Shown here: positions 1,710 through 43,400 of the stretch, in pieces | How positions within the stretch are numbered: position 1 is the first letter of the stretch | How the letters are laid out: each line of letters opens with the position of its first letter | Assembly: GCA_030141605.1 (NCBI GenBank) | Contig: JAQGDQ010000331.1 | Span: forward strand, 62,001-126,000 | Direction: 5' to 3' | DNA: 64,000 bases | Source of the DNA: Tubiluchus corallicola | Lineage: Eukaryota; Animalia; Priapulida | The notes under the pieces: model-generated | What the model was told of the DNA's origin: nothing | The model's database searches: none | What the model saw: only the letters and a program-made list of their open reading frames with translations | Made by a program: the position numbers and the translations under genes

Positions 1710-4700
1710 GCCATGTATGAGGGGAATAGTGATACATTGCCTATTGACACTAAGGCAGTAAGGGTATCGATGGAAATGTCTCTTTTTGGGCGCACATTAG
1801 ATGATGATGTTTCAGACCTTGTCAAGCAGCGATATAAGGCAACTTATGTACCAAAGTGGAAACAATATAAAGTATTGGTTTTTATGTATGCTGTAGGTAT
1901 ACATTTATTATTTTAAATGTTTTGTTTCTGCAAATTAAAGAAGTATTGAATTTGTGTTTATGATGAGGTATTTTCTTTGACTATAAACTTGCTGCTATGT
2001 AGGAATGAGTTGTGTCATCATTTGTGCCTTGTAAGTTTTTTTAAGCGAGGCAACATGCTGTTTCCAACTTCTTTGTTTGATGAAACCATGAAAGGTAAGT
2101 ACTTTCCATTACAAATTTAGAGTAATTAAAATAAAGCAGCAGGCAATTTGCTGCAAAATTTGTATCTTGTGGAGAGACTTTTTTACAGGTAAGACATTAG
2201 GAAATTAGAGTTATGTTTGTATGAATATCAAAACATAAGGTCACACATTTCTAGTTGTTTATGTTATCGAAGTTTAATATCTGGTAAAATTTTTTTTGCT
2301 AACAACTGCAAAAAACTAATAATGAAAGAAATGAAATGTAGTTATTGGCAAGACTGTAATCTTAGTGAAAAATGAGATACTTTCAGTAAAACATTTGTAA
2401 AGTAACATTTTTTGAAGGCAGAACTTGGAACAACACTACAGTCAACATTAGAGTCAGTCATTTTGTGGCAATGCCATATAAAAGCCTTTGGCATATATTA
2501 TAATTTCAACTCTTATCACTTTAGTTGCACATGTCCACATTTTCAGTTAAACGACTAATAAAATGCAGTCACTATTTTTTTCAATTCCCATAAGTATATT
2601 TGAATTGTAATTGCCAGATGGTGGTTCCTTTTCACATAGGATTTCATTAAAAATAGTTTACATCTGAAACTGCAGCAGGTAAATTCTCTACAACAGCAAT
2701 TTTTACAGCAGCACAACGTACCTCTAATTTTTTATTACATTTACATGCATAGTCTTGTTTAGATTTAACACAGATAATTATATTCTTTGGTGTCCCCAGC
2801 TTCCCCTATCTGTGAATTTTTCTGTTTGACTGTCCTTGGCTAACATAGGTTTTTAAAGTTACTGCTACATTAGAGTATCACTTGGAGCGTTCTTATAACT
2901 CAGTGGGCATTAAAATTGTATATTAAAATATATATATATATATATATATATATGTTCTGATGTATACTAATCTGTATCTATTCATCCATACCAATTTTCA
3001 AACTTTTTGCTTCGTTTGTTCAAAACATATAGAAAATATGGCTGCTGTATATTTTGATCTGTTCGACATGTAGGTTAATTATCTAGTAGTCGTTTCATAT
3101 TATAAATGAATTTTTACATTTTACATTTATTATTAGATGACTTTAAAAGGCAAAGGTTCTGTAGTATCTGCCAAGAAACTTGTCTCTCAAATGCATCTTG
3201 ATGTAACTCATTCTGACTTCTGGAAGCTGTACAATGACCTGGAAGAACAGATAAGGATGGCTTTTTTCGTGAGTTAACTAATTTCTATGCAAGAAGTGTA
3301 ATAGAATGGAAAAAGTTTAGAACTCAGAGTGTAAAAAATTTTATTAAACAGGATAATCAGGCATAATGGTTTTCAGGTATACTTTATTTCCTAATGCAAT
3401 CATTTATCATAGTGCTTTAAAGTTGGTGGCTCAAGTGAAAGTGATGTCGATATTTGATACAGCAATTTTGAAATGAAGTTCGATTTGATATTTAACCTAA
3501 AAAATTTACATTTAATAGTTGATCAACAAGGATTGATACAGTGTAGGCTTGCTAACCTACAACCTAAGAGTAGGCAAAATAATATTATAATAAAACATTG
3601 CCAGCATTTTACAATTGCAACTACTTCTAAAAATATACCTCGGTCAAACAAAAATTAGTAATATTTTCTAGTATAACACTTAAAATTTCATTGCAAATCT
3701 TCTCTCAATGGCAGCCTAAGTTTCAACAGTCGGTCCAATATAGTTTTTAATATAAATATTTCTACAGTACTCTTTCATTATCATCCATTTTAAGATATTA
3801 GAGCATCATGCATTTTTCGGGTATGACATTACTATAATCATCTGGAAACTGCAGAGAAATAAGAAAAATCTGAATCTTTCAATCTTTATTACAGTCCGTA
3901 TGAAACAATGGTGTCTTAAGCGTTTTTGCAACTACGTTATATTTTTATTTCATTTCAGTCTCAAACGCATTTTTAAGAACAATTTAGATCACCAACTTGT
4001 ATAAGCCAGCAGGCCCACTGAAAGTTGGAATGCAGCCATGAGGTCCAAAAATAAATTTGTAGAGCAGTGAAACGTTTTAGATGGTTTTGGCAGAATCTGC
4101 ATAACAGCAGGATGAGACTGCAATTGCAAAATCAGTTGATTTTGATGGTAGTTTGTAGGTTTATAGAACGGGTGAGAAAGAAATATTGGGAGAAGAGTGA
4201 AGAGGGGGGCTACAAATCAATTTCACACGGACACATTTTCTTCCTCACAGCAGGTCTGAGCCTCACACGTCCTAAATTTCTATAATATATCATAACCTGT
4301 TGTAACTAGCCATTCTATTAATGCTGTGTTGTTAGTCATGTTTGCATAACTAGTTGATGAGTGACTTCTATTAGTTCCAAACGCTGTTTCACATTTTATG
4401 AGCAAAACATAATATAAGTGTGAAAGTGCCATATATACAAACATATACATAGAGGAAATTGTGCTTTTGTGAAAGTATTACACTATCAGTGGCAATATGG
4501 TTGCTTTAAGAGAGCAGATGTTACACAAAGTCCCTGTAGTTGACAATACTGATGAGCAACTGAGCACGATTTATCAATATGTTATCTACATGATGCCAAC
4601 ACAGCTCTAGCTACTTACTGTTTTTCTTTGATTTGAACTGTTGTTTATTTTGCACTTCAGTTTTTGCATCATTTACATAGGGCTACTCAAGGTGAGGGAA

Positions 4701-6317
4701 AATGCTGTTGAATACTTTAGTAAGAAAACAACCCTTTATTAGCTGTTTTATTCTTTTTTGTTTCTGAAAGACGACATGGAGCTTGTTTCACAACCGTCAG
4801 GGCCAGAATGAAAATGACTCAAGCTTATGTTTAACAAAATGCAAATTAACTTTCCAAATGTTCACGTTTAGAGGAAATGACTTGGTTTTGTTTGCAATAT
4901 ACAATGCAATAACCGCTTTTGTAGCTTTCCCATGCTAAGCTGTTTGGAATACTTTTTTTATGACAGGAGATTTTTTACTGCATAAAACATTCAAGACACT
5001 TGGAGAAAGTTTATAAATTTTTGCATTGATGACAGTAATCACAGGATAATGAGGAGGTTAATTACAGAGACCATCGTAGATTATGCAGTCTATTTTGCAC
5101 TCACTGTAAAACTTTTTGAACAGTTAACACCAATAAATCATCAACAATCAACTTATTCGTTTCAATACATTGTAGGTATGGAATAATCACATGATAGCTA
5201 CACAGGCTTCAGCAATGTTATCCAACTTTTTGAAAAGTATAATTTTGGGCAGTGAAATTGCAGGTACACTAGCTTTTGTGTTGCATGTTGTGTTGCCATA
5301 AGATTTTCGAGCATACTAAAAATGATGCAGTTAGCCTGTCGTGAAAAATAGTAAAAGATGCATACCATTATATTTTGTTGAATATAAATATGAATAGTAT
5401 ATTATTAGGGATTCTAGTTGAGAATTTTTTTTCAGGAGCAAAGTAATAAAAAGTACAAATTTTAGCAAAAATAACTTAATGTTTTTTTAATAGCTTTAAA
5501 TGTTTTTAAAAGCAGAGATATCTTTTAATTTCATTTGCAATGTTTTTTGTCTTGTTATTTGTAGATGCACGTAGTGTGATCATACTAACTCGGTGTTCGT
5601 GTACTGTATATGTACCTTTGTTAACTGCTGTCTGCATTGTCAAACTTTAATGCAGTGTGAAGAATAACTGCAAGTCTGAATGTAATAAGGTACATAGTTT
5701 TAAACCCATGTCTGGTACGACTCAAATCAGCTGTTTTGTAGAAAATCTGCAAAGAGCTGTTTAAATATAGTTCTGAGTAATTAATATTCAACTTTTGCAT
5801 TTGTATTTTATGTGTTTTGCTAGTGTTTCTATCTACATTAGCTGTCTGAAGTGAAATGGTATCTCATCTTTTCATGATTTCCTTCTCTGGTGTTGTAGTG
5901 AGAAAGATGATCTTGTGCTTCTTTTGTCAAGTTTTTACAGGTTTTACAAGAGGAAAGTTGTCTTGTTTCATGTCCCTATGTTTGCGTTTGGTTTTAGTAT
6001 GCCTTGTAATCTTCTGAGTGGTAAACATATTTATATTTGAGTTTCCAAGTTCCAACATTGACATTTACTTATAAGTGTAATCACAAGAAAAAAAGAGATT
6101 TGAGATGTAGACAAATGGTCACTTTTCCGACGACTATTAAGAATTATAGAAATTTCATTGAATAACAATTAGGAAGAAGAACATGATTGCCTGGCATTTC
6201 AGCTTGACACATTCCAGTTACATTGTTCATCCACCAAGTAGTGTATGGTCAGTCATTTTTCTTTCTTTCTGACAAAACATTTGGGAAGTATAATAGGGAA
6301 CATAAATAGATATTTTT

Positions 6318-6404
<87 letters not shown>

Positions 6405-9400
6405 TTCTTGATAAAAATATCTACTAAAAATTTTCAGATTTAACTGTATTAAAAAATCCAATTTTTACATGGAAAAGTTACTTTCTGAGTATTATCACTG
6501 CATATAAAACTGAAGTAAAGTGAACCATTCAGTGATTGATTTTGATAACATTTTAGGTTGGCCATTTTCACATGCTGATTTCGCGTCTTTCAGTTTTGTT
6601 GTCTGACTTTCTGAAAAGTCTTATTTTTGGCAGTAGAACAGCAGGTACACACATTTTATCACTTTAATTTTTGCCCTACAGTTTTGCATTTCGTCAAGTT
6701 TTTTTTGTTATGTAATTATGTCAGGTGCATGTTTCACACCACCTATAGCTGTCTGTGGCAGTAAGCAGTTAGCTAACAGGAGACAATTTAGTGAAAGTTA
6801 ACTGCTGTTGCACTATTTATCAGTTATGAAGTTTGGTGTATTAGTAGCCTTCTTTATGTCTGATTTTTGGCTCCCATGGGATTCTTGTGCTAAAGTTAAC
6901 TTTTTGATAAAAAAGTGTGACCTCCTCAGACCGAAAAAATTGTGTGTCATTTTAATTGCCTTGTTAAGGGAGCCCCGTTAAGGGCATTTTGGGGCGCCAT
7001 TTTCAATTTTGTTTCAGATCAGAGAAATGGCCCTTGTTGACTATGAAGACATCCTATAATCACAGGAAAGGGTATTTTATGATCCTGAATGCTAATTTAA
7101 TATTACTTTCTTTGTAACGATGGAATTATTTTCATTATTGTCATTTCAAGCATTGGAATAAAAGATCCTGGGTAAGAGTTAAGTATTTGCTGTAAACTGT
7201 TAAGTGATTTGGCTGTTGTTGTGCCATTCTCTGGTCTTTGAAAAATCATGAAATCACCCATTTGGGTAACTAGGTCCGTTATCTCAGTAAAACCAATAGT
7301 ACATTTGCATTTGGCATGGCAAAAAACATTTTCCTGCAATATTTAGAATTTTGTGCTTAATTTTACGATTTGCCTTATTTCAGTTCCCAGAAGACCCCAG
7401 AAGACCCTATAAAATGACCCGTCTGGGCAAGTAGTTCCATCCACACAGAAGAACTAAATTCATATTTGCACTCAGCACTCTAAAATATGCCATCCCAGAA
7501 GTTTTCGGATTTGTGCAGTCAATATTACAGCCTGCTGTACTTCCAGACCCACAGAACCCTAAAATGGCTTACCCGGCATCCGGGTCAGCTCGTACAGAAA
7601 AACTAATACCAGATTCGCAGTCAGCACTGCCCCTTGATTGAGTACCCGGGCTTGACTGAGTACCCGGCCTTGACTGAGTACCCAGCCTTCATTAAAAACT
7701 TGCTAATGCAATGGGGGAAGAAAGCAACGGGCCAACAAACTTGTAAAACCCGTTGTTTCATAATTCTCAGGTTTACTTAATCAATAGTGTGGCATATCTC
7801 TGATCGATCTGGACCCAGAATGCCCTGAAATGCCCCTATTTCATTAAGTCATTATTAGAAAAAGTCACACCCAACCTTCTCACACTCTCTAGAGGGAACT
7901 GAATCCATTTAAGCAAAAAAATCTATTTTAGCAGAAAATCTCACGGGATGACATCATGGCCCCTACTATATGCATGTATTAGTGAGACAATGGTTGCTAT
8001 TGGATTAAATGAAGAAAGTTGGGTAATGGTTTGCAAGTGAAAAAAGGCTTGTGAGTGAAACCCTGGAATGACAGTGTTTTGATGTCTAAGTTGCTCAAGC
8101 TTATTAGTGTCTAGATTATAATACAATGTATGTAAATAATATTAATTTTGTAAAAGTTTTATTAGCTTTTGTCCCTCATGGACTTCATCAGTTGTACAGA
8201 GAGACATGAAATATGCAAGGGACAAAAGTTTCTGAGAAAAATAGAGAATTTTTTTATACTTCATGGGCTTTTTGACTTCTTTTATGGTTATGACCATGGC
8301 AAGTCTCAGAAGAGCACTACCTTATTGTAAAGTTTTTGCTTGTTTGACAAGTTGGTTGTTTGGCTTAAATATTGTTGGTTTTGGAAAACAGTAATGCTCT
8401 AAACAGGGAAGGTTTAACAGCGTTTGTTTTTAAAATTTAGGGGATTGATCTTTGTGGCACATTTGTTTTTTGGTTGTCTGTTACTGACCTTTGGCTTTGG
8501 ATACTTTAGAGCAAACTCAAAAGCCTTGAACATTAACTTAATTCTGCTTTGGAAATGCTTATTGTTTGTTTATTACATCACTAGTTTTATATACCGTTAC
8601 TGCTTCTGAAAAGGTTTTTTGAATTTTTCATGAGGATTTGTAATTATTGAACGATCACCTTGCAGAATAAAGTATGCACTATCTGTGGTGAATTTTTCTT
8701 TGCTCTGTTGTGGAAATCAGGCATACTTTTTTAAAAATTGGCATATTGCATTCCAATTATAGAAGTGTATTTAATTGCTTCCAAGTGTATGATGTTTAGA
8801 ACATTGCGAAAGTTTGTTCAGAAATTCACAAGCAGATAATGCAGTTCTTTTCTTTTTGTACTTTTTCAACTTTTCAAGGCATGATTATAAATAAGTGATC
8901 TTGGCATATTTTTGTAACTAGCAGACTGCAAAAGTTGTATGTTTAATGATATTGGGGGGGGGGGGGGGTTAGGTTAACTGATGCCACTCTGAGAATGCAG
9001 CAGACAAAGTCAGAAGAAACTGTCAGCAAATGAGTATTCCTACGTAATTTCTTGGTTTTATAGTTAAGTGACTTCAGAAAGTCTAGGGAAATTAAAAAAA
9101 ATGAAAATAGAAAGTGGGATATTTTGTTACAAAACAAGCATAACTCTGAAAGATACTATTTCATTAACTTTATAAATGAATATATTTTATGAAAGTTTCA
9201 TTGTAAGAGAATATTCATGTAGTCAGTAATAATTGTAGGTGTGTGTTGGTTTTAGGTGTGGGAGCGGCATATGATGGCTTCACATGCCTCAGCGGGAATG
9301 TCAAATATTGTGAGAACTGCCATAGCGGGTAGCCAGACTGCAGGTATCTAGTGACTGATTTTTAGCTGGTCCTTCACAAACATCTAAGTTTCCAGTTTTT

Positions 9401-10648
9401 AATTGCTGATGTGATGTTAGTACATAGGGCAATTTTCTCTCTGCTTCTTCCCACTCCCATATTTCATGTTTTCAAAACAAGTTCTAATGGTCAGAGCATA
9501 TCAGTTTAAATCTAAATTAAATCTTTGTGTTCGCCTCAAAGAAAACTTGAATTTATAAACCTGTGCCAATGGCTAATCATGTGACAGAATGTGAAAATTT
9601 CCATGCTTGTTTTCAAGTTCAGTGATTGACTTGTAAATGTCTTTTTTACATTTCGTATTCTTATATTACTCAGACAGAACTACTGTTGTCAATTAACAGT
9701 GATTGAATAAGGAAGTTTTCATGTTTGCTTTCATTTTCAATAATTATTTAATCTTTGGTATGTTCTTTACTGAAAAAAAGTAATGTGCAAGTGTAAGGCC
9801 AATGGCTAATCATTTGATAGAATAAAGAAGAAAGTTTTCGTGATTGTTTTTAAGTTTAATGGTTTCTCTTACTCAGTTTTGGATTCGTACATAATTCGTA
9901 CATAAATTTCTGCTGGTTGATTAACCTATGAGGGTGTTGTATGTCTAATGTGGCTCATTAAAGTGTGTGCAGCTAGACATTGGACAGTATGGACTATAAT
10001 CAAAACTTGTAATGCTGTGAGATTTTTCTTAGGCTTTTTAGCACTTTTGAATTGTTTCTGTTTTGGCTTTTGTTGGTCGTGTTATAGATTTAAATATATT
10101 TTTCTTTCTGGGACCCTGTAGTTGTTTCCGTACATGATCTTTTGCTTCTCTGCTTTTGCTATTACAATCAGGTTCATGTCACCAGTGTTAATTATTAGCT
10201 TTTATAAACGCTATCTAAACGAAGTAACGTTGCTATAAACTTTGTATAAAGGAGTAAGAGCGCAGATAATGTCTAGGAACAATCAAGCAAATGATAAAGA
10301 AATGTCAGGTGGTAAGTAGGCAGGAGAGAGTCTATTTAATACCTGCTGAAAGAGAAGAGGAACTTTGTGATATGAAAATATGCATAGAACAAAACATAAT
10401 GAGTAGGGGAAAGGAATGGAGGATGAAGAAGAGTAAAAAAGATGTGTGACGGTGCATTGTTTTTAAAGAAAAAGCAAATATGTCTGTCTTGCTTGATAGA
10501 AGATATAACTAAAATTTACTTTGCACCTATAGAATTCCTATTTGAATAGCAAAAGTGCAGTTAAATGAAAGTGCCTAGCAAAGAATATAGCATATTATTT
10601 CTTTCCTCTGTTATTGATTGTGTGTGCATGTGTGAGGGGGTGTGTGTG

Positions 10649-10687
<39 letters not shown>

Positions 10688-13600
10688 ACGCATGCGCGTG
10701 TGCATGTGCGTGTGTGTGTGTGTGTGTGTTTTGCATGATGGCTAATGCTATATTGTGACTTATTCTGTAAGTTAACACATTGTGATGTCAGCCATGTAAT
10801 TGTAGCAATATTACAATTGCATTGTGTCTTCAATGTTTTAATAGACATATTTAGTATCTCATTATGTAGAATCTATAAAAGGAACTTGAGATGTAAAATA
10901 TTATAAAAAACGTGATATTTCAGCCATCATAATGCAAGTCATCATCAGATGTCATAAGAAAGTTTAAAAAAAAAATAAAACGTAAAATTTAGAATAACAT
11001 CATAAATTAATTCTTTATATTAACATTTTAGTTTTACGCACTCTGTTTTTGGGTTAATTTCTTGCCATGTAACTTTATAAACTGATCTTTTTTGCCCTGG
11101 AGGTGGTTTCATTCCCGTGCTCATTGTTTACATGATGTTTTCAGCTAGTTTTTATATTATAAAGTCACAATAGAGTAACTATGTATTCTAACTTTTTATG
11201 ATAAAGCAGATTGACAATAGTAAATGGTTACGTAACATGTTCACAAAATGGAGTTCATGAGAATGCTAAATGGTGTTCCAAAGGACATATCTAACCATTT
11301 GCTGAGAGAAACACAATAAGCATGTAGCTCAATGCTTTGAGTACCAGACTAGTTTAAAAAATAACTTGCTATAACATCTGCTTCCATTTAGGGGATTGAA
11401 ATATCATGTTGTTTTTTAATATATATTCTACATTTCATTTGCTTTTATACTTATTGTTTGTTAACAGTAATTTGTTTAAGTTCTTTTTGTGTTTCCAAAG
11501 TTGAAAATATGAGATATTGTGTAGTTTTAGCTGTGTGTAGCTATATAGTTATATACTGCGTAGCTATTTTATCTTTGGTTATAGTTTTCACAAATATTCT
11601 TTAAATTACATAAATTCCTGTAATGTTTCATAAATTTACATTCCAATATTGCATCAATTTTTATGGTTTCTATTTATTTTGTCTGACATTCTAGTCCATT
11701 TTTTTTTCATTTTTGCTAGAAATAAATGCAGATGTTATGGCTGATGTTGCTATGATTCTTTCCTCATGCCCAGATGTGCTTAGTGCTGATGTTCCTGCAG
11801 CACTGAAGGTAAAAATTTCTAAAATTCTCCTTAGGTATGTCTAAATTTCATTTTTAGATGCTTTTTTTGTTTTTAATAGTAATATTAAAAAAACTTATTA
11901 ATAATATTTAGCTGTGTTTTTCTTTGTAGGGATTGGCATTAGATATTGTAGAATCAGGACATGATGCTCATTTTCGTTCAATGTCACCTGAGGTAAGAGT
12001 ATAGATACATTTATTTATTTGGTGTTTTTCTGCTTATGTAAAATAAGACAGCTTATCCATGTAAATGGTATTAAAAGATATCACTTATTTTTACAGAAAG
12101 CTACTGAATGGCTTCATAGTAGTGAAAGCGGTGAATTGAAAGACAAGTTTGCAAATTTCATAGAAATTCATGGTCACAGATGCATAAGAGAGGTTTGATT
12201 TTTTATCCAGTTTGAATAATGATTCATTAATTTTTCTTAAAATGCATTAACATCTGGACAGAATTTAAGAACTATTTGTGGCTTTTTTGTGAAAAGTAAT
12301 ACATTGAGTGAGGTATTACAGCTCAAATAAAGTATCACCATTATTCTCTGTGATTTTGTTTTAGGCCGAGTTATGGGAAAAACCTTGGCGCGTGGTTCCC
12401 GAGAAAGTTGTTAGAACTTTACAGGTAAACTTTTATGTACAAATCTCTCTAGACAAGGTCAGTGACTACCCTGTTGAAGTGCTACAGTTAGAGTGCAAAC
12501 AAAAAAATAAAATGATTAATTTTCTCATGATAGCAAGCATCTTTTCGTATTTTTCTTGGAGCATAATGGCGTTACAGTCAATGAAAAAACTATTTTTGAT
12601 AAAGAATTCAACAGTTAGCAAAACTGAAACAGGATTTACAGTTGATGAGCAAAAGATTGCATGGTAGGCCCAAATCAGACACTGCCAAACTAACAACATG
12701 ATTTTGCAATCTGACATATATGTGTCATTTTATGGCAGCAGTGCAAATGTGAATGCAGTGTTCCAGTGCAAGTTTGGATAATTGATTTATAGAAATGAAG
12801 ATAATATCAGGAGTTAAATATACAGCACTGCAGCAATCTTATATTTATTAAATATTAGTGTAGTATTTATTGTGTATTAATGTAATTACTTCTGTAAAAC
12901 ATTCAATAGACTTGGCTGATATTAAGAAATAAAACTTCTGTTCTGATATAACATCTATATTGATGTTATGGCTACAAGACAAGTTTTTGATTTGGAAATA
13001 ATAGACTGGCATAATTACTGCTGTTAATGTTATCACATTTGAATAAAAGTGATTGTACTATGATAGATTCCTTATGTTGTCATTTTTACAATAGCTGTAT
13101 TAAGTATATGCATTATTTATTTTGCAAGTATGCAAACTAAACTAAATATGTGGCATCATCTATGTGTCATCTTTGTGTTATGTAATGTAGCTGTATCACT
13201 AATGTTTCAATGAATTGCCACCATAAAATATTAAAGTTTTACTCAAGTTTGCAAAACCAGAATGTAACCAGACACCTAATATTTTGGCCATTTTGTTAGA
13301 TGCAGATGAAAGATAATGCAAAATTCGTCTCATTGCATGTATAGCTTAACATCAATGTGTTTTAGGTTTTTTACATGATGTAAATAACATCAGCAAGTAT
13401 GCACATTTATTTTATAATTTAACTTCTTGCATTTACTTACGTTATACAATTAGTGTGGTGAATTTTAGGAAATGACAAGAGATCCAAGCCACTTGAAGCA
13501 GAAAAAGACGATTTTAAATGAAGCAGAGGCATTAGCTGCCATCAAAACTCCAGTCGGCAGAATAGCAAAGTAATGAAAGTTGATAAGGTTGACTAGTTTT

Positions 13601-25400: not shown

Positions 25401-28400
25401 GCATTGCTTTATTTTAATGGCACACAAGTGCAATAATAATATCAATTGCTATCAATGGAGTTTGGAATATTATATTGCATAAGGCCTGAATCGATTGTCA
25501 AGGAAAAAATTCTGTTATAAGATAGGATCTTACTAACTTTTATAGTAAATTGCTTATCTTTGCAAAGGTTAGGCTCAATGTTGTATTGTTAGTGTAGTTG
25601 TATTTATTGTTTGTGTTAAGCAGTGTTATCTAACACCAGAGATGTGATTTTAGGCTGTCGACTGTATGTATTTCAATGGATTTGACAAATTAGGATCTAG
25701 ATTAGTAGCAAGAATTGCTCGTCGACCTGGTAGGACTGCAGAGGTAAGTAGCAGACTCATACACCTTAGTTCTGCATTTAGCATATATAAATTCAGCATG
25801 CAGTGTTGCATCAAAGCAAAATGTGTGCTACCATCACTGACTAATTTTAATCTTTGCTATTCTTACAATGTGTAAGAACTCTCCTGGGCTTGTAATATCT
25901 TTCACACTAAAAATGTTCAGAAATAACTGCTCAATTTAGTACATTAAAATATAATAAATAATTGAAAGCAAACTAGTTTTGCCAAGGCCATGGAGTGTAA
26001 TTCTATAAAAGCAATTTTATTTACTTTGTCTGGAACATCTCAGATGTATAATAAGATCGTAACTTTAAGCAAAACTCATCATTCAAGATTAGTTGCCCAA
26101 AGTGATCATTATACAACTTCATTTCCTAATTGTAGCACAAAACAGATTGAATTTTGAGATGATTCTTTACTTTGAACAAAAATATCGCATTCAGTTAGCT
26201 GCAACATCACTGTAATTTTATTCACAACATGTGTAATGGCCAATGTTCTAGTAAGCAGGCCTATTAAAGGTGGGCGGGCAGCCAGTGTGCAGCATCAGGC
26301 CCCTTAAAGCCCAAAAATTTGGAACCATGGAAGATTTTTTGTTAATAGCTTTGTTAGAATTGGTAAAACTAGTAACTAAACAAATTTTGCTGAAACATGG
26401 TAGCCTGTGTTTAGCATTTGTATGATTTAATCTTGGTTTTTCATTTTCAGATATGGTTGATGATACGACTACCAGATGGTCGATACTTCCATTATCCTAC
26501 ATTACCCGATACTGTACTTTACAATGTAGCTGAGGAAAACTTTGAAGCTGGAGGATTGAAGTTTGAATTGATAGAACCTTTATGGAAATGGCGATTATCA
26601 TTTAATGGTTTATTAAGGTAACTATGATTATTAAGGCTCGTAGCTAAAATTAAAATGGTGCTACTTCAGAAAATTTTTAGCAATTGTTTTAATATAGTGT
26701 AAAATGTAACAAACATGTGTTTGTTTAATGTTGTAGTTATATTTGAAGATCGGGTGTTGAACGGCCTCTTTTCTTAACTGAAACTTTCTCATAGAGAGAC
26801 AACTGAAAAATTAAGCTGTTGTAGTTCACTTAAAGTCACAGAACTTATTTTTTGGTGATGCAAGGCGTCCTAATTAAATAATTTATGTTTTAAGCACACA
26901 CGCTAAGTTTATCACATCCAAGAAATATAGTACATGGTAATCACATGGCAGTTGTTATAGTGATAAGCACAGTACTTTTCTACCTAGCAGCAGACAATAG
27001 TGTATAACGTGTTATCTCAGACATGTGCGCATGGCTGCATGCGCACAACAGCCGAAGACACGTTGCTTGGGCGTGAAACAAATTGTACTTTCCTCGCGTT
27101 TTCCTGTGCCACACAAGTATAAAAAAGAACTAAAGAAAAAATACCTATCATATTTAATATTATCGATAATAATGAGTGAAAACAGGGGGGCTGCAGTACC
27201 AGAGTACCTATACATGGGCCACCACTGCATTCTACATACTATATGCATTTAAATCCGGTTCCTTTTTTAATTCTCTTTAGTTAGTGTACTTTTAGTAATC
27301 TGCCTCCATCAGGTCAGTTCTGGTTATGAAATGATTGCCAAAAAAGTTAGATGTAAATCAGTATTATATATATATATAAGTCCACTTTTTTTCATGTCCC
27401 TTCGCATGCATTAGAAGACTGGCATCAAATTTGCAAATCTGTATGAGTTTTACTGTTTGCAGTTAAAGGTTACTGTGCAATTTTTTGAGTCGTTTTGTTT
27501 GGCACTTAAGTAGTCCTCTTGAGTCATTTAACTATGCGTACCTCTCCTCGAGTGTTTTAATTGTTGTGGCAAACATTGTATTACAATCACTGCACATTGT
27601 GACAGAAACATTCATTATGTTGTAGAGAAGGTGAGAGACACGAGTGGTCAGAGCAAGATGGAAAACTTGTGCATATCACATTCGCTTTTACGTAAGTTGT
27701 ACATTGTTTTTTTTTTAAATAGCTGCTGTGTAGCGTGACATAGCATAAGCAAGTGGTTACTTCGGAGACGGTTTTCAAAAATTAAATGTCACATTATTGG
27801 TTCAGTCAAGTTTGTTTTGGTTAGATTTTGTATGATGTGAAATCTGTGGTTTGTCATTCTTTACAGATCTGGATAGAAAGTACAGTGTGTCCAAATATAG
27901 ACTTTTTTAAGCCTGCTATCCATTTTAGTACAGTAAAAAAACTTCCTACTTGTTTGCCTCATTTCCCCTGCAAGTGCTTACATATAGTCTAACTATAAAC
28001 ATTATACAGCTGTATCTGTTATTTGGTATTTATTAGGAACTCTAAAACTTCGATATTGCTGATGGTTTGACTATGGATTGTGTGTATGCATACATTCTGT
28101 AAGAATAGCTTTATTTTTGTGTGTTTAGTTGGACAGGTATCTCAGGCAGAGTATATGGTACCGAAGAGTTTAATATACAAACTGCAGCTGATGGCATTGC
28201 TAGGGCCCCATGGTCATGGCAAACATTTAGCAAACTACAAGACCGCAGGCATGTTACTTATTTTTAGCTTTGTGTGTGACACAACATGTGAGATAGGAAA
28301 TTATAAATTTTTTATCAACTCATAACCTATAGAATGTAAGGAAAAGGAAAAATCATTTTTGTGATAAAACTCTAAATTTTGTGCATTGTTTGCTGTTTAA

Positions 28401-31400
28401 ATATTGAGAAAATGTCAGATCGTTGAGAGTCAAGTTTTCCAATAAGTTTATTCGAGCACACATGACAGGTTTTCTTTTTGAATAACTAATTACATTAAGA
28501 AGAAAATTATTTGCATAGTTCACAAAGCTTCAGAGTTTTTTATGTGCATGTTTAAGTAGTTGGTATGTCGACGTTCTTGTATTAGTTTTGTATCTACCAT
28601 TAACTGTTATCATCATAAATTATACTCATCATTTATGAGTCAGTTTCATTGTTTCATGTAGCATATTGCAACTGATATTTTTCTATATTTCTGCATTCTA
28701 GCTTTTATACATTTTTACTACTTGGTATTTTTTTTCATTAATTAAGTTTTATGTATCTAACGAAGAAGATGGAAATATTCTTTTGTATAAGGTAGAAAAA
28801 CATCTATAGCTCTTTCTGTTTTATAGTTGTAGTTATCAGTGCTATGAACAGTGGGGATCAATGATAGGAACCTTAACAGCAGAAAATGAAACACCAAAAG
28901 TAATGCAGTTACAAGGCGCAAGAACTCACAGCTGGAATGTTCTTAACTGGGCTGTCATAGAAAAATACATTTTAATATATGGATACGTAGAAGATGGAAC
29001 GTGTTTTACCTTTGGAATTTTAAGCATACGTGGTTTCTGCAGCCAGTAAGTTTGTACTTTTACGTACTGTGAGTTTACTCAAGTTATTGTTGTTGTAGTG
29101 TCTGTTTTCTAACATTTTCATTTTCTTGCTGGTATCATAGTATTGTAACTTATTATTGAAGTTTCAAGTATTGTTACTTGTGTATGTAGTTTCTAGCGTA
29201 ATCATTTATGAAATCGTAAACCGTTATTTCAGAAAATTCTTATCCTCGTATAAAAAACTGCTATTCATTAAATTTTTATAGTGCAGACTCACATTTGGGA
29301 AGATAGTATAATATTATATGATTTCGTTTTGCTGCATACTAGTTATAGTGACAATTACTTTCCTACGTTATTGGAATCAGGTAATCACTTTGCATGGCTC
29401 AAAATCTGGATGGAGTTATGCAGCTAATCTTGTATATTTGAAATACTATATTAGATAACTTTATTAGAGTAATAGCAGTCTCAAATTCTTGAGTGAAGAT
29501 CAAGGCTAAGTAGTGTTTTCAAACTAGGCCATCTTCTGAAAAACTAAATATTCATAAAGAGCGAAGTGGAACAACAAAACTTATAGCACAGTACAAACTT
29601 ATAGCAAAGAGCATGTAGGCAAATGGCTTTGGTTAGCTAATAAATAGTCTTAGAATGGTACTGGGTTGTCATTGATCAACAGCTGTTTTTATTGCATTAA
29701 TACTAAATTTAAGGGGACTGACTTGTTTCTCAGAAAAGTTTTTTGCCAGAAAAACTTTTTCCCAACAAAAAAAAAATCACAGAAAACTTTTTGCCAAAAA
29801 ATTTACTTGCCCGACAAAAATTCCCAGAAAAGATTTTATGCAGAATTGCCATTTCCCAGAACCCTCATTTCATAGAAAATAAAATTCAAAGAAAATGTAA
29901 CAAATCCTTCTTAAGGTGCAATTAGATAATATGCAATTAAAAGTAGTTTATCTTAACTGGGTGTACTGATTAATGAAGATCATATGTTCAAAAAATTTTG
30001 CCAACAAATTAAGGCAAGAGAGTAGATTTGTAATGTCAGAACGATTAATTAGCTAGCGAATCATGTTGATCTTTGTAAATACACAATAGTGAGTGGCCAC
30101 CACGGTGCCTGGCTATCAAAGTTTCAAAGTGCCGGTGATCACTTATGAATCTCACTATTGAGTAGTTTCTTGTACTGTGATTCCGAATTATTTCGTTCAT
30201 TTCTCGGTTTTTAGAGAAAATGTACGTGCATCAGAATATGAATGTGACACATCTCTGCCAGTTTAGTATTTCATCTCAGAGGATTATCTTGATAATGAAC
30301 TTAAGGTCTGGTCCTGCCATAAAAGAACCTATTAGAAAAGTCTTGCAAAAGAGAATAATCTCTGGGGAAATGTTGGCCCTTAAGATATTCACAAATCCGT
30401 ATAGTTTGCAAAGCCTTGGCATTTTCAGTTTTTGTAATTATTATTAATTTTTATTAAATTTTATTTCAAATCCTATGAAAATCAATTATATTTGAAGTGA
30501 TTATTTACAGCAAATAGTACACTGCAAATTACTTTCAGTTTGATAATGCAATTTCACAATCGTCAAAGCAAATTAAAATTCTAACAATGAAATTTCCAAG
30601 CAAAATATTCTCTAAAACTGGGTTGGCACTCTAAACATTGTGTCGTTTTAAATTATTCTGATTTTTGGTAGTTATTAGTCAAAGCACTGTAGAAAGGTAA
30701 AGGAGAGCAGAAAAAGAAAGAATGAGAGAGGGAGCCAGAGAGGGGAAGAAGGGGAAGGAGAGAGAAACAGAAGGAGAGAGAGCTAAAAGTTGGGAAGAAC
30801 AATATTACGCAACTTGCATGTAGTTTAGTGTAAGTGAAGAAAAGTGACTCTTACTTTGTTTCAGGATGCTGTTTGGGTATGTTCATTTTCCATCTGGTAT
30901 ATGTTGCAATGTGAAATCTAGCACCTTGAAGTTGCCTGAAGTTAGTGATGAACAATTGCCACCCCATCGACTTACTTTCTCTTTGAATGCTGGCAAGTTT
31001 TGCCTATACGTTTTTAATTTTTTATTAAGTAAATTTTTTAATCAATTAAAAATATTATTGAAATAAAAAATTTAATTTTTTTTTAAAATTTTCCTTCTTG
31101 TGAATGTTTTATAATTTGTTCACAATGATACTTGTTCACTATAACAGTTATTTTTGTTATAGGAAAGTCTAAGGCTTCTGGGAAGTTAAGCTTATATCAA
31201 TTTTTTCCAAAAAACGTTGGTATTTGGAAATAAAAAGGGTGGAAATATGGAAATAAAAAAGTAATAAAAGAGTGATAAGCGCTTCGTGTAATTAGTAAGA
31301 TCACTTTGAAATTGCGATCATTTCACGCTTGCACACTCTCGTTTTTCTACCAATGACGAAGTTCATCGACTGTTAATTTCCATCAAAAGTATAATTAGTT

Positions 31401-34400
31401 TTTATGAAAGCTAATTTTGTAATATTTTTGCATGAGCGCTAGGTAGGCTGCAGACGTTTGAATTAGTTTGAGCAGTGTGCATTTATGGGAAACCACGATA
31501 CGCTTACGAAAAGTCACAAAGTCCACCAGTTACGTTGTAATTTTTGAAGTGAACGGCGGCTTACCACCATGCCTGAACATTTTTATACAGCGGTATTATA
31601 AAATAATTCTACACTATTTAAACATTTTTTGCAAATTTCTTTGTTACATTTTTCGAAATTTACTTGATAAGCCCAACATGCTAAGTTACTTGTCCTTTCC
31701 TTTAAAATACATTGTCATTTTAAAATACGTATAGATGCTCATTTTAATAGTACAGTAGGCGCCTCTTAGACTCAATTGCTTAATTGACTCAAAAACGCCT
31801 GGTACGAGCCGTTTCTATTCAAATGTATACAAAAATTGTCAGTAATTGACTCAAATAACTTCGCATAACTGACTCAATATTTTTCCTTCACGTATTTAAA
31901 ATAAATCATTTATCATTGAAGTACCATTTTGTTTGTAAGCAGGTACGTTTATCATGTGCTGCGCTAATACGCTAGCATGGCGGTTTTGCTTTGAATTTGT
32001 TACTTGCTCGTCCACTCGTTACCAAAGAATTTCTGGAAGCTAAACATTTAATCACTTGCCAAACGGTTTCCTTTTGAAGCTCTCATTGCAAATCACGCTT
32101 TCACGCTTAATTAATTAACAGTTAAAGATGCAGGTACTGTAATCAGCCGGTATTCCTTGTGATTTGCAAGAGTAAACCTCATACAACAAATAAGAGCATG
32201 AAGTTAAGAAGTTTGAAAAATGGAGCATAAGAGTAAAGATATAACAGTTAAGGACGAAATCAGCACCATTGCAAGGCAGAGTCAAGATGAACCTACAGAG
32301 GATGACGAAACCACTTGCGAGGAAACAAGCAAGTGCTAAATGTTTTACAAGAATACGTGCATCACACAGCAACTGTTTTTCAACATTTTTTACAATTATG
32401 AAAACTTTGTAAGCCAACTTCTTCGAGAGAAAATGAAGCAGCGGTCTTTGAAGGAATTTTTGTAATTTTTGCAAGTAAACAGACTTGGTGTGATTTAGAA
32501 AAGTATATTTTTTCATTTTTTCTAATTCACCTACTACACTTGAGCAAACAAAGCGTTTATATGCAGAATACTGGCACAGGTGTTTAATGGCAATGTTATT
32601 ATATCATGCAACACTTATCTGCATCATTAATCTAGTTTGCAAGAATGAATGCTCACATTGAACGTGTATTGATTTCTTAGCTCCTATGTAAACATGTAAT
32701 TATCTGGGTGAGTATTAAGACGCGGACTATATTTTTTCTTCTTAAGGATTGGAAACCTGAGGTTAGGCCTAAAAATTTTTTGAAGTAACTTGATGGGATT
32801 AAAGTATTCCCTATATATTATTTAAATGACCTATAATCCTGGTTGTTGTTTATGGAATAATATACGTAATTTAGTTTTTAAATTTATATTAAAAATTACT
32901 GTCTCTCTTAAAACTGAAATTGTTCTTGGAAATCATAAGCCTTATGCCTTTGTATTAAACTGAAAGCTGCAGTGTTAAACTTCACTGAGAAAAATGATCT
33001 CACATGGCAAGAAAATCATTGTTTAATAGGTATAAACTACACCATTGTGTTTTCCAAAGGTCGGACTGTCACTCAAGGAGAAAGGTTGTGTATTGATATT
33101 GTATTGTAAACCAGTTCATTTTTCAATCATGACAATAAAAGGTGTAACTCAAAATCAGTGGGTCAGTTTGATGATTAGCAGAGAAATAAATATTGGTTGT
33201 GTGGTTACTTTCTGCTTCATGTTTATGTGATTATTTTTTTAGAATCTCGAATTTGCAAGGTTGAACTTGATAGCAAGTTTGACCAGCAGATTTTTCAAGG
33301 TTTGCACTGGAGTGCTAAAATCGTTGAACAATTTGTTGATGTGTCTTTTAATTCTTCCAAAGGCTGGGGAATAGCTGAATATCTTTATCATAGGTAAATG
33401 ACTTAATTGTCTTAATGCTCTGATCAAGCATCATTCTACTAGCAGAAAGAACAAAAACAGCTCAAATGTCCTTACTAAGCTACATCATTTTGTTTTAAAG
33501 CTACTGGCAACTGTCCTCATTTAAGTATTTATTGCCTGCAAGTTTATTTGATCTCTCATGCTACAAACATCCGATAGTAGATTAACTGGAGTAGAGTGTT
33601 AGGATGTATATACACTCACATATGGCTGAGACAGCTCTGCTAGTTAGGTGGCTCATCTTTGAGAGGGATATCCTTAAACATGAGTCTTGATCAAACATCT
33701 CATTAAGTAAGCCCTGCTTTGAGTTCCGAATTCTTGCTTACAGTGTGCCAAAGTATATAAAAAACAATCATTTCAATGTAAATTTCCAAAACTGACTACA
33801 TATATCAGAGGATTTAAAAAACAATTTTTAAATTATTTGATATCTACGAGCCAGCTTACAAATAGTAATAATGTTAATAAGTAATTAGTTAATAATAGGC
33901 TAAATGTAATTAGTTAGTTATTGACAAAGAAGTATTGCCAGCATGCATGGATTTGAAATAAGAAAAACCTGGGATTCAAAAATACTTTTTGAAATGATTG
34001 TCTCCTTTCTCTTCGTCTTTTGAAACTTTCTTCCGCTGTAAGTCTAATGGGTAAATCACAACCATTAGAATGAATGAGTTACCAGTGCCTGCTAGCATGC
34101 TTTTTATATTTTATTACACAATATGTAGGGGACATATAACAGCATTTAGCATAAATTATGTTGTGTATGTATTTTGGTCAATAGTGTTTTCTATTCAGAA
34201 ATATGTGGTAGTATAGGAGCATGTTCTTATTATTTATACAAGTGCAATATAACCACAGTGCATGATTAGGTGAGGTTAATAATCGATGCTGCTTAAAGTT
34301 GAGTGATGCGTTATGTCAACCGTTTGTAATTACTAATCAGTTTTAATATAATTATTCACAAACCTGATTAGTGATTATGTATAAGCTAAACTATCATGAG

Positions 34401-37400
34401 CAATATGTTCTTGGTTTTTAACTTCCAACTAGTAAACATTAAAAATTACTTTTCCTTTTATAAATATTGCAACTGTGTCTCTAACATTGACAGCACTTTT
34501 TGCATTGTTGATAGTTATAAAGCTGCAACTTTGCTGCAGGTAGCATGAGGACATCTTGGCAACTTACTCATGTGCATTATCATTTTTTTACTAGTTGAAG
34601 TTTTTGTGTTTATAGGGTTTTACAATTTTATACCTTACTCTTCGCTAAATTTTATCTTGTATTGTTTGTTTTAGAGAAGAGGAAAATTGTCTTGTTCCAA
34701 GGTATCACTCAGTTCCATTGCTGTCAGATCCTTCTTTACCAGGTAACACAACTTTTGGTATATTATTATTACTTCTTGCCCTAAGTTTTACATAAGATGT
34801 TTATCTACATTTCACAAATTTAATTTTCAGATAACTTCAAAGAATTGCATGTAATTCCTTTGGAGATAGAGACATCTTCTTCAATTTTAGTTGGTGGAAA
34901 GGGAACTCAGCTAGCTTTGCTCAAACATTTGTCTGTTAGTACTAATGCAAAGGTAAATAAAACGTTCTTAAAATGAAATATTTGAAGCTGTACTGACCCC
35001 TACTAATAATTTATTTGTATTTTTTCCGGTAAAAGAGGTGTCAGCTGGTGAGAAAAACAATTGTGATTTGTAATAATCAATTGTTAAGGTTAAAGTGATG
35101 TGGTAAACTTGCTGAGGTTATAAATGCTGTTTGTGTTGCTGAAATTTAGCAAAGTTGACACATTAGTTTTGATTATGGACAATCACTCGCATTTGTTGAG
35201 TAAAATTTTTCATCTAAAAACGATGCCGTTGTTTTACAAAGTTACATGCATGCTATTAAATAAACGTATATTATTAACAAAATCTGAAGACATTGTTAAT
35301 GCTTATTTCAAAATGTCATTGATGTGCATGACAAAAAAAAAGTTGCGTAACAGCTATTGAGCTTAGAACTTTCGGCACAAAGTCATTGCACTTTCTTGCA
35401 GCAGTGACATCATGCCAGAACTAAAGCAAAGAAATTCCATGTGTATGAAACTTTTAGTTAGTTGCCAGTATGGTTATCAGCACCGAACAAATTACTGTTT
35501 CAGACCCAATCATACTGTGCATGTGCATGTGTGTGCGCGCTTCAGTGAAGGTGTGCGTGTATGTGTGTGTGTCCCAGTGTATATGATAATTATGGTAGTA
35601 TGATTACAGTAACAACAAGTAAGTGCTTTGTAACTAATCTTACTCTTTGTCAGCTTTTTATAGTTCCAAATGCTTTGCTAGTGACAGTGAACATGTATCA
35701 GTTGCAGTTAGCTAGCACTCCACTAGTAAAAGCTAAGATACAAACTCTTCACGAAAGTTGCAAGTGAGTATACATCAACTACCCAAAGTGCTATATAAAA
35801 GTTTTTGTGGTGCTTGCTTTTTTCTTTAGCTCTGACCATATGATTAGAGAAATTTCGGTAAAACTTGTACAGTTGTCATTCCACAAACGTTAGAGTGACT
35901 TTTTTTAATATAACATTAGTTTTAAAGGGAAACATATATGGAAAGTGGAATGAGAAGTTATAATAATAAGATGTCAATCATGCCTTTCTTTCATTTGGTG
36001 TTCATCTCTCTTCTAATTGGACCATTAGCGTGCAATGTTTCAATTTCTTTACAACGTAGGCCTTTTTCCACATTTTTAGTTATATTTTCTTGCAAATTAA
36101 CTGTCTTCTGCAATTTGTAAACCATTCAAAGTTTTAACAAATTAATTAAATGTATTAGTTAATGAGTAATCCTAGTGATGTTGAGGTGTTGGCTTTTGAG
36201 TTAGTATTTTTTAATTATCATTTTAAATTCTATTGTATTTATGTTGATTCATTAAAACTAACACCCTTTGTTGCTCTTTTTTTCAGCTCTCTTACCAAAT
36301 TGAAAATTGCCTGTGATAACCTTGTAGAGGAAATTAGCAGTTGTTTGCTGTGTTTCGAAGCCAGACAGAAGATTGCAGATGAAATGGAGCAAGAGTTTGG
36401 ATACGACTGGACAAATAAGCAGTTTTCTGTTCGTTCGTCAGCTGTCGGAGAAGATGGTTTGGAAGCATCCAGTGCCGGGATGATGGCCTCTTTTTTGGGA
36501 GTAAAAGGGAGTGACAATGTAAGTTTGGAGAAATTATTATTACAACAGACTTTTGTATTTGTTTTTGAGACTGAACGTTATTACAATATGTACATATTTG
36601 TTGCATTTAACTGATTACTGTGCTTTTTAGTTATATGAAGCTGTTGTGAAATGCTGGGCTTCTTTGTTTTCTCTTGATGCAGTGCAGTACAGAAGGTAAA
36701 TCATTATATTCTTTTATTTGTTTCTGGTCCTTCTGATATTTTGCACTTTTTTGTTTTTACTGGTTTTACTTTTTTGTGATATAGTTTTCTGTTCCAGAGT
36801 AGAAAATATATAAAACTTAAAATATGGCAGTACTTTAATTTTAATCAGCTGTCAAAGCTTTTAAATTTTAGGAAATCAGTGAAGAAGAGACTTATTTAGT
36901 AACTAGTTATATTAACTTGTGCACAATCCAGTGATTTTTTTCAAAATTGATTGTATGTGGTATTTCAAGAAATAATTAAGCTTCATCGTTAACCCATAGT
37001 AGATAGATATTAAACTATATTAGAAACTGTCGCATTTTTCATATCTTGCTTCTATGGCACTTGCTGCCCAATCTAAATTGCAGATATAGTATTTTTATTT
37101 TTTTTATTCTTCTTTGCTTGATAACTGTAAACACACAGGCACAGAGAACTTTGTTCATACTCCTTGCAGAAACTAAAATTGTATGATGTGCTGATCCAAG
37201 TTCAGTACAAGTGCAGGGGTATGATTTCTGTCTCCGTCCAGACTTAACTTCCTAGTGCAAATCGAAAACTGAAACATAAATTGAAAACTGAAGTACTGAA
37301 AACCTGTCATCAATTTTGTACACTGATTTTTTTGCGTTGGTGATGTCTTGTTGGTTAAAATTGTCTCTTTGCAGCTGATTTTAAAATTATTAAATATTCT

Positions 37401-40400: not shown

Positions 40401-43400
40401 CTGTTGTTAGAAAAATTTCATAATGGTACATGTTGAAATGTTCTAGACTATACCAATGAAGGGCTATTTGTATGTTTTTTTTTGTATATGAAAATTGTCT
40501 TTTTAAATAGGAAGAATGAAATTAAAATAACTATAATTTTTTTAAATTAATTTGTTCCCTGTTGAGTATTCAGCATATATTTATCTTCTGCATTTTCCAT
40601 TTTCTGCACACTCTGTAATTTACACATATTTTTTTACATTTAACAAATCTTGCCACTGTTCAATTTAATGAGATGACGTATTTGCACTCAAGTAGATAAT
40701 GTAAAATGTACAGCATAGTTCAAATATTTCTAACTTTATCATTTATTTTGCTCTGATTTTCAAATAATGTTTTTATCATTACATGCAGATGCTCACATAC
40801 ATACTACACTTTAAGATGAGAAAGATCAAACCGATATATGTTGATTTTGCTGTATTTTCACTACATCCATTTATCAACATGCTGAATGTAAGTTGAATGC
40901 TCTAATTCCTGTATGCTGGCATGCTACCAACAGTTTTAGTTTGTCTCGAAGATACAAAATAGATTGTGAATAAGCTGCAGTCCGGAATATTTACAGCTAA
41001 CAAATTTATTTTAACTACTTTGGCCATTATTATTTTTTCTTACTTTTGAAATGTTTGAGATTGATATTCCTCTGTTTAAATTGTTGGATAATTTCTTCAT
41101 AGTGCATCTTAATGGTTTTTCTGATTAAGTAGAATTGAGGCAATGGATCTGGTTAGCTTGTTGGCAATCTTGTGCATTTCTGTTTTAACAAAATGCTTGC
41201 AGTTCTTTCTGTTTTTTTAAATACCAAATATAGCTTTTTTGATGTGAGTACCAGGTGGCTTGTGTAGATTTCCTCAGTGTTAGGTGGAGGAGTTAAGGCA
41301 AAGTGATTTTATTGAAATGAAACCAGAGAGTAGTGTCAAAAATGTATTTGACATCGATTGACTTGTTTAGATGATGTATAAAAACAATAAATACACAACA
41401 TTGAGAGACACTAGTGTACAGAAAACTACCGTTGACCTGGCAATATTTGGACACTGTACTGATACTGGTTTTGCCAAAATGATAGATCATAGATACAGTA
41501 GCATTCAAAGATCATATTTCATGAAACTTCGTGTTGCTGCAAGATTTATTTGGGTAAGTTCAGTTAATAGCACAAAAATATTTTGTACTGTAATACAGCA
41601 TTATACAGTGTTTCTATCATTTTAAACAATGTGGTAGGAGCTGTTGTAACTGTATGTTGTCTTAGAGTTCAACATGTGATCTGTAAAATACAAATAGTTA
41701 TGTATGACATACTGCACATACGAATGCAGAGTTCTGTTTGTACCGAACTCGGAATGTTGTTATTCGCAGGTCCAGAATGCACTAACCTGCTAATCTTTGA
41801 CTTTTTCAACTCCTGTCAATAATGTTTACTACATGACATGAAATATTTATTTTTTCTAAATTTTAAATTGTATTAACAGAAGCATGAAGTCTGCTTCCTG
41901 AATGTGAAAATTTACACATGTTGTACTTTATTATAATACCTAGCTCTTCAACTACACAACTATTTTTAACCTACTTGTACACTTATATATGTATTCCTAA
42001 GGTAACTACAATATGCAAAACCTTCAAAATGACATTATACAAGCATTCAACTGCAAAAGGTACATTGAAAAGAACTGATATTCAAGGCATGCACACAAAT
42101 GCTCAGTACTCACACACTTTTGTTGAACAATTCCAGCCTGATATTGACTTATCTAACAATTCAACATTATTTCCTTAGTTATGTGTAGTGAAATGTGCCT
42201 AGACTGGAGGGCATAATTTTTCATGTCACATCATCAATAACAGCAGACGGCTAATTAATGTGCTGTGGAAAAAACCATTTTAAAAGAGTCAATTGCTGTT
42301 TTCACTTTCAAAGGAGTAAACAAATGGTTCCCACAACCATTGATGGTGTGACAAATTCGGATTTCGTTTGAACTAACTAAAGGATATTTAATTATTGTTT
42401 GATTTATTTTATTAGCTTTAATCAACAGATCACTGCATTAATTTTGTAGATGGTATCTAGAGGTCAAGCTGCAATTAAATCTGCTAGAGCAATGTTGGCA
42501 AAACTGTGCATAGATCAGACATTGACAGAGCCATTGGTTTTATATTGTTCCATACAGGAAAATTTTAAATACGGCTATGGAGTGAGTATCACTTTTTATG
42601 TTTAGGTGGAAAGTTTAATCACTTAACATTTTCTTTATTTTTAAACACACTTGTTTGCTGCAGTCTACATTAATGTCCATGTAACTACATTTTAGATGTC
42701 ATCAGCACTGACACATAAATGACTTAGTGGCTCATTTTTATCACCAGCTAAAATTTTCTGTACTGAATTGATATGAACTGAAATTGCAAAATGATTAATT
42801 CACTGTTTTGTTAAAAGTTGTGTATGTCAACAATAAAAACTGTGGTGAACGAAAAAACTTCATAAATTCTTCCAGAATTTTGCTGATCATTTTTGTTAGT
42901 AATTGCTAGTTGACATGATAAGAATCACAATTGTGTCATTATCTTATGAATGATTTTGTAATTTTTATCTTTGTTGGTTTAGATTTGGTTTCAGCATTTA
43001 TTCTGTTCAGCTAGTTCTGCATTTTGGTCTTCAATGATCAGGAGAATTCTTGCTGATGGCACAAATGGTAACTGCACTTAGTCTATTTAGTCTCTACATG
43101 GCCAGCAGCTATAACAGGGAAGTCATGTGTGCATTGTGATTGCCAATATAGAATACAAATTTCTCCACTGTTACTGAGAGCCCGTTTTTGAAGCAGTATC
43201 ACAAACATTGATACATTAGCCATGGTTTAGGTTTGTGAGATCTAATCCAAAATGTAACAGCAAGCATAAGTATAAATTTCCAGTGTCTGTTAAAACAAAA
43301 ATATTCTTTGTTAAGTGAAAAAAGACGTGGTAATAATTATTGTTAGTCGCCATTTAGATGTATACTAAATGCGTACTTAACTGTATTTTAAAAAGGTTAT

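Follow-up and report, generated by a model that had tools for sequence, protein, structure and literature searches.

A candidate three-way mutually exclusive exon cassette at the acceptor cleft of an RPH-like dikinase from the priapulid Tubiluchus corallicola

Mutually exclusive exons that exchange part of an enzyme are already known, e.g. from coq-2, where exons 6a and 6e occur in nematodes, annelids and molluscs and their swap is described to switch the substrate from 4-hydroxybenzoate (4HB) to 3-hydroxyanthranilate (3HA) (PMC7434440), and the variable residues of homologous mutually exclusive exons are more generally described to cluster at or near functional sites (PMC7954323). Here we describe a feature that resembles this arrangement in a stretch of 64,000 nucleotides from the priapulid Tubiluchus corallicola (GenBank assembly GCA_030141605.1, contig JAQGDQ010000331.1, positions 62,001 to 126,000 of the forward strand), in the following called the window, where a gene for an enzyme resembling bacterial rifampicin phosphotransferase (RPH), gene 1, carries three homologous exons, A, B and C, between the constitutive exons U and D (Table 1). 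The likeness to coq-2 lies in internal exons of equal length, which is not a multiple of three (134 nt in coq-2), that are mutually exclusive, here putatively so, and swap enzyme helices near the active site, whereas the difference is that coq-2, as described, has two exons in an unrelated enzyme, is found across phyla and has been tested, while the present cassette has three copies in one genome and is known from sequence. The UGT1A first exons likewise join alternative parts for substrate binding to one constant catalytic part (PMC9013439), but these are large first exons selected by alternative promoters, whereas the present cassette would exchange just one internal helix.

On the enzyme side the relevant comparison is with Listeria monocytogenes RPH (PDB 5FBT/5HV1), which is described as having an ATP-grasp domain, a helical acceptor domain and a C-terminal His swivel domain with R-E-x-x-K and His motifs (PMC4844700), a layout shared by the animal proteins. 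The two nonetheless differ in that RPH Gln336 aligns with Gly in the animal family profile, in that RPH is longer by about six residues around 477-482, and in that many animal members, gene 2 of the window included, carry an extra N-terminal domain. PigC and HapC share the three-domain phospho-His architecture and use other acceptors (PMC13534948), and these proteins as well as RedH are bacterial and come without splicing. The aromatic kinases HpeHI and AcvAB, of which HpeHI is reported to act as a dikinase on aromatic compounds (PMC12624787), are also bacterial and come without splicing; the structure of HpeI matches the ATP-grasp part of a model of an animal homolog.

The reading that we favour, and to which we would assign a probability of roughly 60%, is that A, B and C form a mutually exclusive cassette of which one copy enters each mRNA, so altering a helix of the acceptor cleft and giving up to three enzymes that differ within 29 residues. 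The exons are each preceded by AG, followed by GT and free of stop codons in phase 0, and U joined to any one copy and D gives an open reading frame. All other combinations stop early, since inclusion of A+B leads to a stop in B, that of A+C or B+C to a stop in C and that of all three copies to a stop in B, while skipping of all copies gives K and then a stop. Recomputation bore out what the first-pass annotation of this DNA had reported in this respect, namely three 88-nt exons with their coordinates, AG/GT borders, phases, peptides, identities and nine invariant residues, the rule that every pair, the triple and the skip form end prematurely, and a single counterpart in gene 2. Compared in pairs, the copies agree at 14, 14 and 11 of their 29 residues and, as DNA, at 58, 54 and 45 of the 88 nt, the invariant positions being V1, H5, M6, S12, S16, I23, G25, S26 and A29, and position 9 is T, S and S in A, B and C, respectively. 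The copies vary at positions 2-4, 7-8, 10-11 and 13-14 of the swapped helix, where the changes from A to B include W2G, N4F, A8I, A11L and A13V.

Scored with a splice-site matrix that was derived from the constitutive exons of both genes (41 acceptors, 39 donors), the sites of A, B and C fall in the lower-middle to upper range of the constitutive sites, and C, A and B take ranks 1, 2 and 4 by splice-site score among the 89 stop-free AG..GT segments of length 3n+1 (70-106 nt) that the 8.45-kb interval contains. Every donor is GT, and the minor-spliceosome consensus is matched by none of them. A tblastn comparison of nine exon peptides with the window furthermore finds exactly three cassette copies in gene 1 and a single one in gene 2, and neither U nor D occurs a second time between the cassette exons, i.e. 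the neighbouring exons are not duplicated. We can conclude that the cassette is real as a sequence feature and that it is an exon triplication and not a partial gene duplication, and in its tandem homologous copies, shared flanking exons, equal length and phase and one-copy frame rule it has the hallmarks of tandem-duplicated mutually exclusive exons. One exon would then have been duplicated twice inside gene 1, with A and B as the closer pair, and transcripts with wrong combinations, which stop early with 13 exons still downstream, would presumably be removed by nonsense-mediated decay acting as a filter.

The position of the segment was approached through models of homologs from Priapulus caudatus. 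In an AlphaFold2 model of protein P0013 (predicted local distance difference test score, pLDDT, 84.6), the best structural matches of which are the Listeria RPH structures, the segment (605-633) makes up the C-terminal half of a long helix that spans 588-633. In RPH the apex subdomain is described to comprise residues 428-505 and 648-693, Leu478 and Phe479 to contact the ansa chain of rifampin, and Arg666 and Glu667 to be needed for transfer (PMC4844700). Profile alignments disagree on the register, placing the start of the cassette at RPH 477 or 483, and as a register check a 256-residue stretch of protein P0004 was modelled from cassette position 1 onwards (pLDDT 96.4). Of this stretch 248-249 of 256 residues align to RPH 477-738/741 (Z 14.1-15.0, root mean square deviation 3.3-3.4; next unrelated chain Z 6.7), the start falling on RPH 477 in five of six RPH chains and on 474 in the sixth. 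Since model residue 1 aligns to RPH 477, the cassette appears to begin beside Leu478 and Phe479, and cassette positions 2-3 (W-N, G-H and W-E in A, B and C) likely overlie these two residues. The models are thereby in agreement with the earlier proposal that the segment lies at the acceptor cleft, and it is from them that we infer ligand contact at the level of single residues.

Selection on the copies was judged against a family profile of 157 out of 165 homolog rows (8 were dropped for gaps), from which 12 near-duplicate isoforms and the models from the window itself had been excluded beforehand. The strongest columns of this profile are S12 (85%), L/I23 (L 74%), H5 (74%) and S/T9 (86%), and H5, S/T9, S12 and I23 are retained in all three copies. 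A scores practically at the family median of 30.0 and C near the lower quartile (scores in Table 1). In neutral simulations, in which half of the divergence was placed on the target copy, the score of A is reached in 0/2069 and 0/2628 stop-free runs and that of C in 36/1898. Judged by the profile, A and C are accordingly constrained, as they fit it far better than neutral drift would allow. The comparison of nonsynonymous (dN) and synonymous (dS) divergence that the first-pass annotation proposed has also been carried out, and dN is smaller than dS in all three pairs (dN/dS 0.39/0.82, 0.40/1.83 and 0.58/saturated), but a test on changes private to each copy is significant only for C, which with 9 synonymous to 9 nonsynonymous changes (p 0.0096; A+B stem included) shows the sole clear excess; all copies taken together give p 0.055. 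We consider it very probable that at least two of the exons are live, and rather likely that all three are.

If the cassette is used as we propose, phosphate from ATP would be delivered by the His domain that all forms have in common to an acceptor lying next to the equally common R-E-x-x-K motif, in the manner of RPH, and the swapped helix would tune the choice of small molecule or the speed of its acceptance, with B as the most remodelled version. From RPH, PigC/HapC and HpeHI one may guess that the acceptor is a phenolic or otherwise hydrophobic metabolite or xenobiotic. That H5, S/T9 and S12 are kept in all copies implies that the change may be one of tuning and not of creating a new pocket, and we give even odds to the isoforms differing in substrate preference. 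The more far-reaching idea that splicing programs a single gene to yield three phospho-His dikinases, each with an acceptor cleft of its own and the one with B having an opened, more hydrophobic pocket, is tentative and somewhat doubtful.

A number of observations weigh against the proposed cassette function. The profile score of B lies well below the family 5th percentile of 17.5 (an in-sample and hence inflated figure) and is reached by 992 of 1988 neutral simulations, the private synonymous to nonsynonymous changes are 3:11 in B (p 0.64) and 1:4 in A (p 0.72), and the selection tests are weak in that they concern only 29 codons and employ simple models. As regards the structure, the cassette corresponds to RPH 483-507 in one profile alignment, so that Leu478 and Phe479 fall just outside it, the structural alignment gives only the first and last aligned residue, and the models represent homologs from Priapulus and none of the three isoforms. 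Among 14 multi-member homolog sets, moreover, none was found to exchange the segment, 3 of them from Priapulus and 11 others, among which the oyster cluster was represented by 11 of its 41 members. The points concerning B would be explained if A and C were live and mutually exclusive and B a dead or dying copy of A, as is also suggested by its loss of W2, the commonest residue of its column (36%), besides the low profile score and the neutral-like 3:11 ratio. We nonetheless regard this as unlikely, since B is intact in length, frame, splice sites and H5, S9 and S12 even though its flanks share nothing with those of A; the 300-nt flanks of A, B and C align no better than random intron pairs in 6/6 comparisons. 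The neutral chance of B keeping its splice sites, frame, H5, S/T9 and S12 after 19 changes is 0.041 before indels are considered, and about 0.006-0.016 with a no-indel factor of 0.15-0.39 from assumed indel rates. The differences between B and A furthermore lean to the cleft-proximal half, where 10 of 14 residues differ as against 5 of 15 in the rest (p 0.066, the split having been chosen post hoc). B could thus be a remodelled pocket or a recently relaxed or decaying copy, and of the three enzymes claimed in the first-pass annotation those with A and C hold up as constrained, whereas B, below the 5th percentile and with its neutral-like ratio, is less certain, so that there are perhaps two.

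Another explanation accepts a live cassette but one that would tune turnover, stability or the way in which the His swivel domain docks, and not the identity of the substrate. The invariance of H5, S12 and M6 and the near-invariance of position 9 (T/S/S) would fit such a function, the swivel domain of RPH is described to touch all three acceptor subdomains (PMC4844700), and the register of the cassette is uncertain by six residues, but the differences at positions 2-3, likely placed over Leu478/Phe479, and the wide variation of the helix among paralogs, most pairs of which are identical at 6-11 of 29 residues, make the explanation rather improbable. That just one exon is now used, the other two being formerly functional and recently fallen out of use, is in keeping with the fact that intact sequence records past selection and not present use and with the non-significant private-change tests of A and B; it is however highly improbable, because it needs two independent recent losses without any splice, stop or indel lesion and because A and C both fit the family profile. 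Finally, the notion that the copies arose by faulty assembly or are left over from partial gene duplications in tandem has nothing in its favour and is largely refuted by the facts that they differ at 30-43 of 88 nt and have unrelated flanks and that no copies of U or D lie between the cassette exons. Contigs of sequencing run X1, which may be the source sample and hence not independent, also agree with the DNA over B (no differences in 6413-6770) and over most of C (one difference in 8976-9330). A mutually exclusive cassette at the acceptor cleft remains the reading that we prefer.

Transcripts over the cassette were looked for in run X2, which carries the same species label and is taken to be RNA by guess, and none was found; there are 5 contigs on 300-20250, 2 on 3000-12500 and none on the cassette, which says nothing on its use, and no RNA data set turned up for 3000-12800. 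In one X2 contig four exons from the 3' part of gene 1 are spliced together, three GT..AG introns having been removed, which indicates that gene 1 or a close allele is transcribed. Within 17464-20196 the spliced contig has 5 differences in 263 nt, and an X2 contig of the 3' end, compared over 149 nt, shows 13 differences besides a gap of 5 nt, which points to a divergent allele, a different population or a close paralog.

As for the control of exon choice, steric exclusion is unlikely because the introns between the copies are 1293 and 2611 nt long. The CA and TG-rich tracts of Table 1 lie on either side of B and C and can be paired along some 83 nt, with a predicted duplex of -137 kcal/mol. 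As a possible regulatory element, their pairing would loop out B and C and favour A, but it was noticed post hoc, microsatellites are common and chance may explain it. The sequence TGCATG, the RBFOX motif, is found at 5282, 19 nt past the end of A, and at 6726, 82 nt past that of B, an observation likewise made post hoc, and it occurs within 100 nt downstream of 0/39 constitutive donors and 35 times in the window. A candidate docking site of the Dscam type, in which one intronic site would pair with a selector close to every exon, lies at about 4915-4940 and beat 30/30 shuffles, but 355/595 real intron-zone pairs were as good, and a downstream docking model was equalled by 7/30 shuffles; neither found support.

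Table 1. Positions of the cassette, of the two genes and of the repeat tracts, counted from the first nucleotide of the window
Feature	Position	Strand	Remarks
Gene 1, constitutive exon	1710..1892	+	61 codons, acceptor domain; first gene-1 exon in the window; homologous to 41371-41553 (gene 2) and to Priapulus proteins
Constitutive upstream exon U	3137..3268	+	132 nt, phase 0-0; 3' end codes for first half of the long apex helix
Cassette exon A	5176..5263	+	88 nt, phase 0-1; profile score 29.9, closest to the family profile
(CA)39 tract	6323..6400	+	Upstream of B; only long CA tract in the window
Cassette exon B	6557..6644	+	88 nt; aberrant, profile score 10.7; H5, S9 and S12 retained
Cassette exon C	9256..9343	+	88 nt; best splice sites among the three copies; profile score 24.5
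TG-rich tract	10609..10732	+	Downstream of C
Constitutive downstream exon D	11720..11808	+	89 nt, phase 1-0
Twelve further gene-1 exons to the stop codon	11930..20140	+	Open partial model; motifs; three introns spliced out in X2 contig
Gene 2, tandem paralog	26451..50693	+	N-terminal extension, ATP-grasp, acceptor and His-swivel domains
Cassette counterpart in gene 2	42983..43067	+	Single copy, 85 nt, phases as in gene 1

With any single cassette copy the model of gene 1, from 1710 to the stop at 20140, is an open partial protein of 509 codons, in which the R-E-x-x-K motif, the equivalent of RPH Arg666/Glu667, lies in exon 15378-15513 and the swivel-domain His at the end of exon 18961-19063. 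No convincing upstream exon of gene 1 was found in 1-1690, the 5' (ATP-grasp) half of the gene lying outside the window, and the candidate exons 2003-2094 and about 440-595 were dropped because their frame is broken or they lack homology. The model of gene 2 has an open frame of 991 codons that starts at 33243 and shares 43% identity with gene 1, and its exons match PPDK_N and then PEP-utilizers, i.e. the domain order of RPH. Both genes contain R-E-x-x-K and SHGA motifs that align with Arg666/Glu667 and the swivel His of RPH. Gene 1 has two introns (in 11930-12192 and 18961-19407) that are absent from the corresponding parts of gene 2 (43991-44149 and 50270-50447), pointing to gain or loss between the paralogs. 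The region 26451-33393 of gene 2 encodes a domain ahead of the ATP-grasp that is absent in Listeria RPH, and a mollusc homolog has a sub-threshold DUF7064 match in that N-terminal region (24.3 as against a cut-off of 24.7 bits). Between the two genes there is a diverged direct repeat of about 450 nt, seen by eye at about 20800-21260 and 24090-24550, and further downstream a 704-codon open frame (61727-63841) with an RVT_1 reverse transcriptase domain (E 2e-35) is probably a retrotransposon.

As to the kind of enzyme, the domain order and fold, seen in the matches of gene 2 and in the models of homologs, and the catalytic Arg-Glu and swivel His are those of an RPH-type dikinase, and the R, E and K of R-E-x-x-K are invariant in 127 homologs. 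The layout of phosphoenolpyruvate (PEP) synthase and pyruvate phosphate dikinase (PPDK), which has a central His and a C-terminal pyruvate-binding domain, is not found, the His domain being C-terminal in both genes; this distinction by domain order is drawn in the description of RPH (PMC4844700). The earlier designation of the product as an RPH/PigC-like enzyme is upheld as far as architecture is concerned, with Listeria RPH as the best structural match, but the cut-offs of the RPH and PigC families are not reached: Priapulus homologs, which were scored in place of the window protein, obtain 353 bits against the RPH family NF041857 (cut-off 999), and P0013 obtains 326 bits against PigC (cut-off 1300) and 290 against RedH (cut-off 1350). 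By its architecture the enzyme is RPH-like, and by these scores it is outside the RPH, PigC and RedH families, and with homologs so far below the RPH and PigC cut-offs a rifamycin or prodiginine chemistry should not be assumed.

The nearest named proteins are Priapulus caudatus paralogs annotated as 'putative PEP synthase / YvkC-like', which make up 9 of 12 matches and are 53-67% identical to gene 1. Judging from the names of the homologs, RPH-like dikinases occur in sponges, molluscs, nemerteans, arthropods, echinoderms, a shark and priapulids. A tree with 29 rows was calculated from the acceptor and His region, and in it gene 1 and six P. caudatus paralogs (P0004, P0005, P0006, P0016, P0043 and P0080) form a seven-row group with support 100/99, in which gene 1 is sister to the six paralogs (their clade 90/85), and gene 2 falls outside. 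The Priapulus paralogs are separate genes, each with its own version of the helix, and a whole-gene expansion to six genes in the sister lineage accordingly stands opposite an exon triplication in gene 1. RefSeq isoforms of three Priapulus loci are without a swap of the cassette segment, and the Babylonia isoforms X1 and X2 are of equal length and differ in one residue. A metagenome scan for the cassette left 1 locus from 353 pattern matches, a 20-residue match without further similarity, and a search for longer proteins with exon U gave 3 candidates and no match. The cassette looks lineage-specific on these comparisons, but annotation may overlook such exons. In the literature searched, from which subscription journals are mostly missing, there was no report of such a cassette in this family, consistent with the first-pass annotation, nor any paper on the function or substrate of the animal RPH-like family.

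If the proposed reading is true, gene 1 of T. corallicola would be a three-way addition to the few enzymes in which substrate choice is set by mutually exclusive exons. Three natural variants of a cleft helix on an identical scaffold would moreover be a clean route to the substrate and to the residues that set specificity. Should the three forms indeed have different clefts, they would make up a specificity series provided by nature in an enzyme family with a wide distribution among animals, and gene 1 would be the single-gene counterpart of the six-gene expansion in Priapulus. The two related lineages would also offer a contrast between exon duplication and whole-gene duplication.

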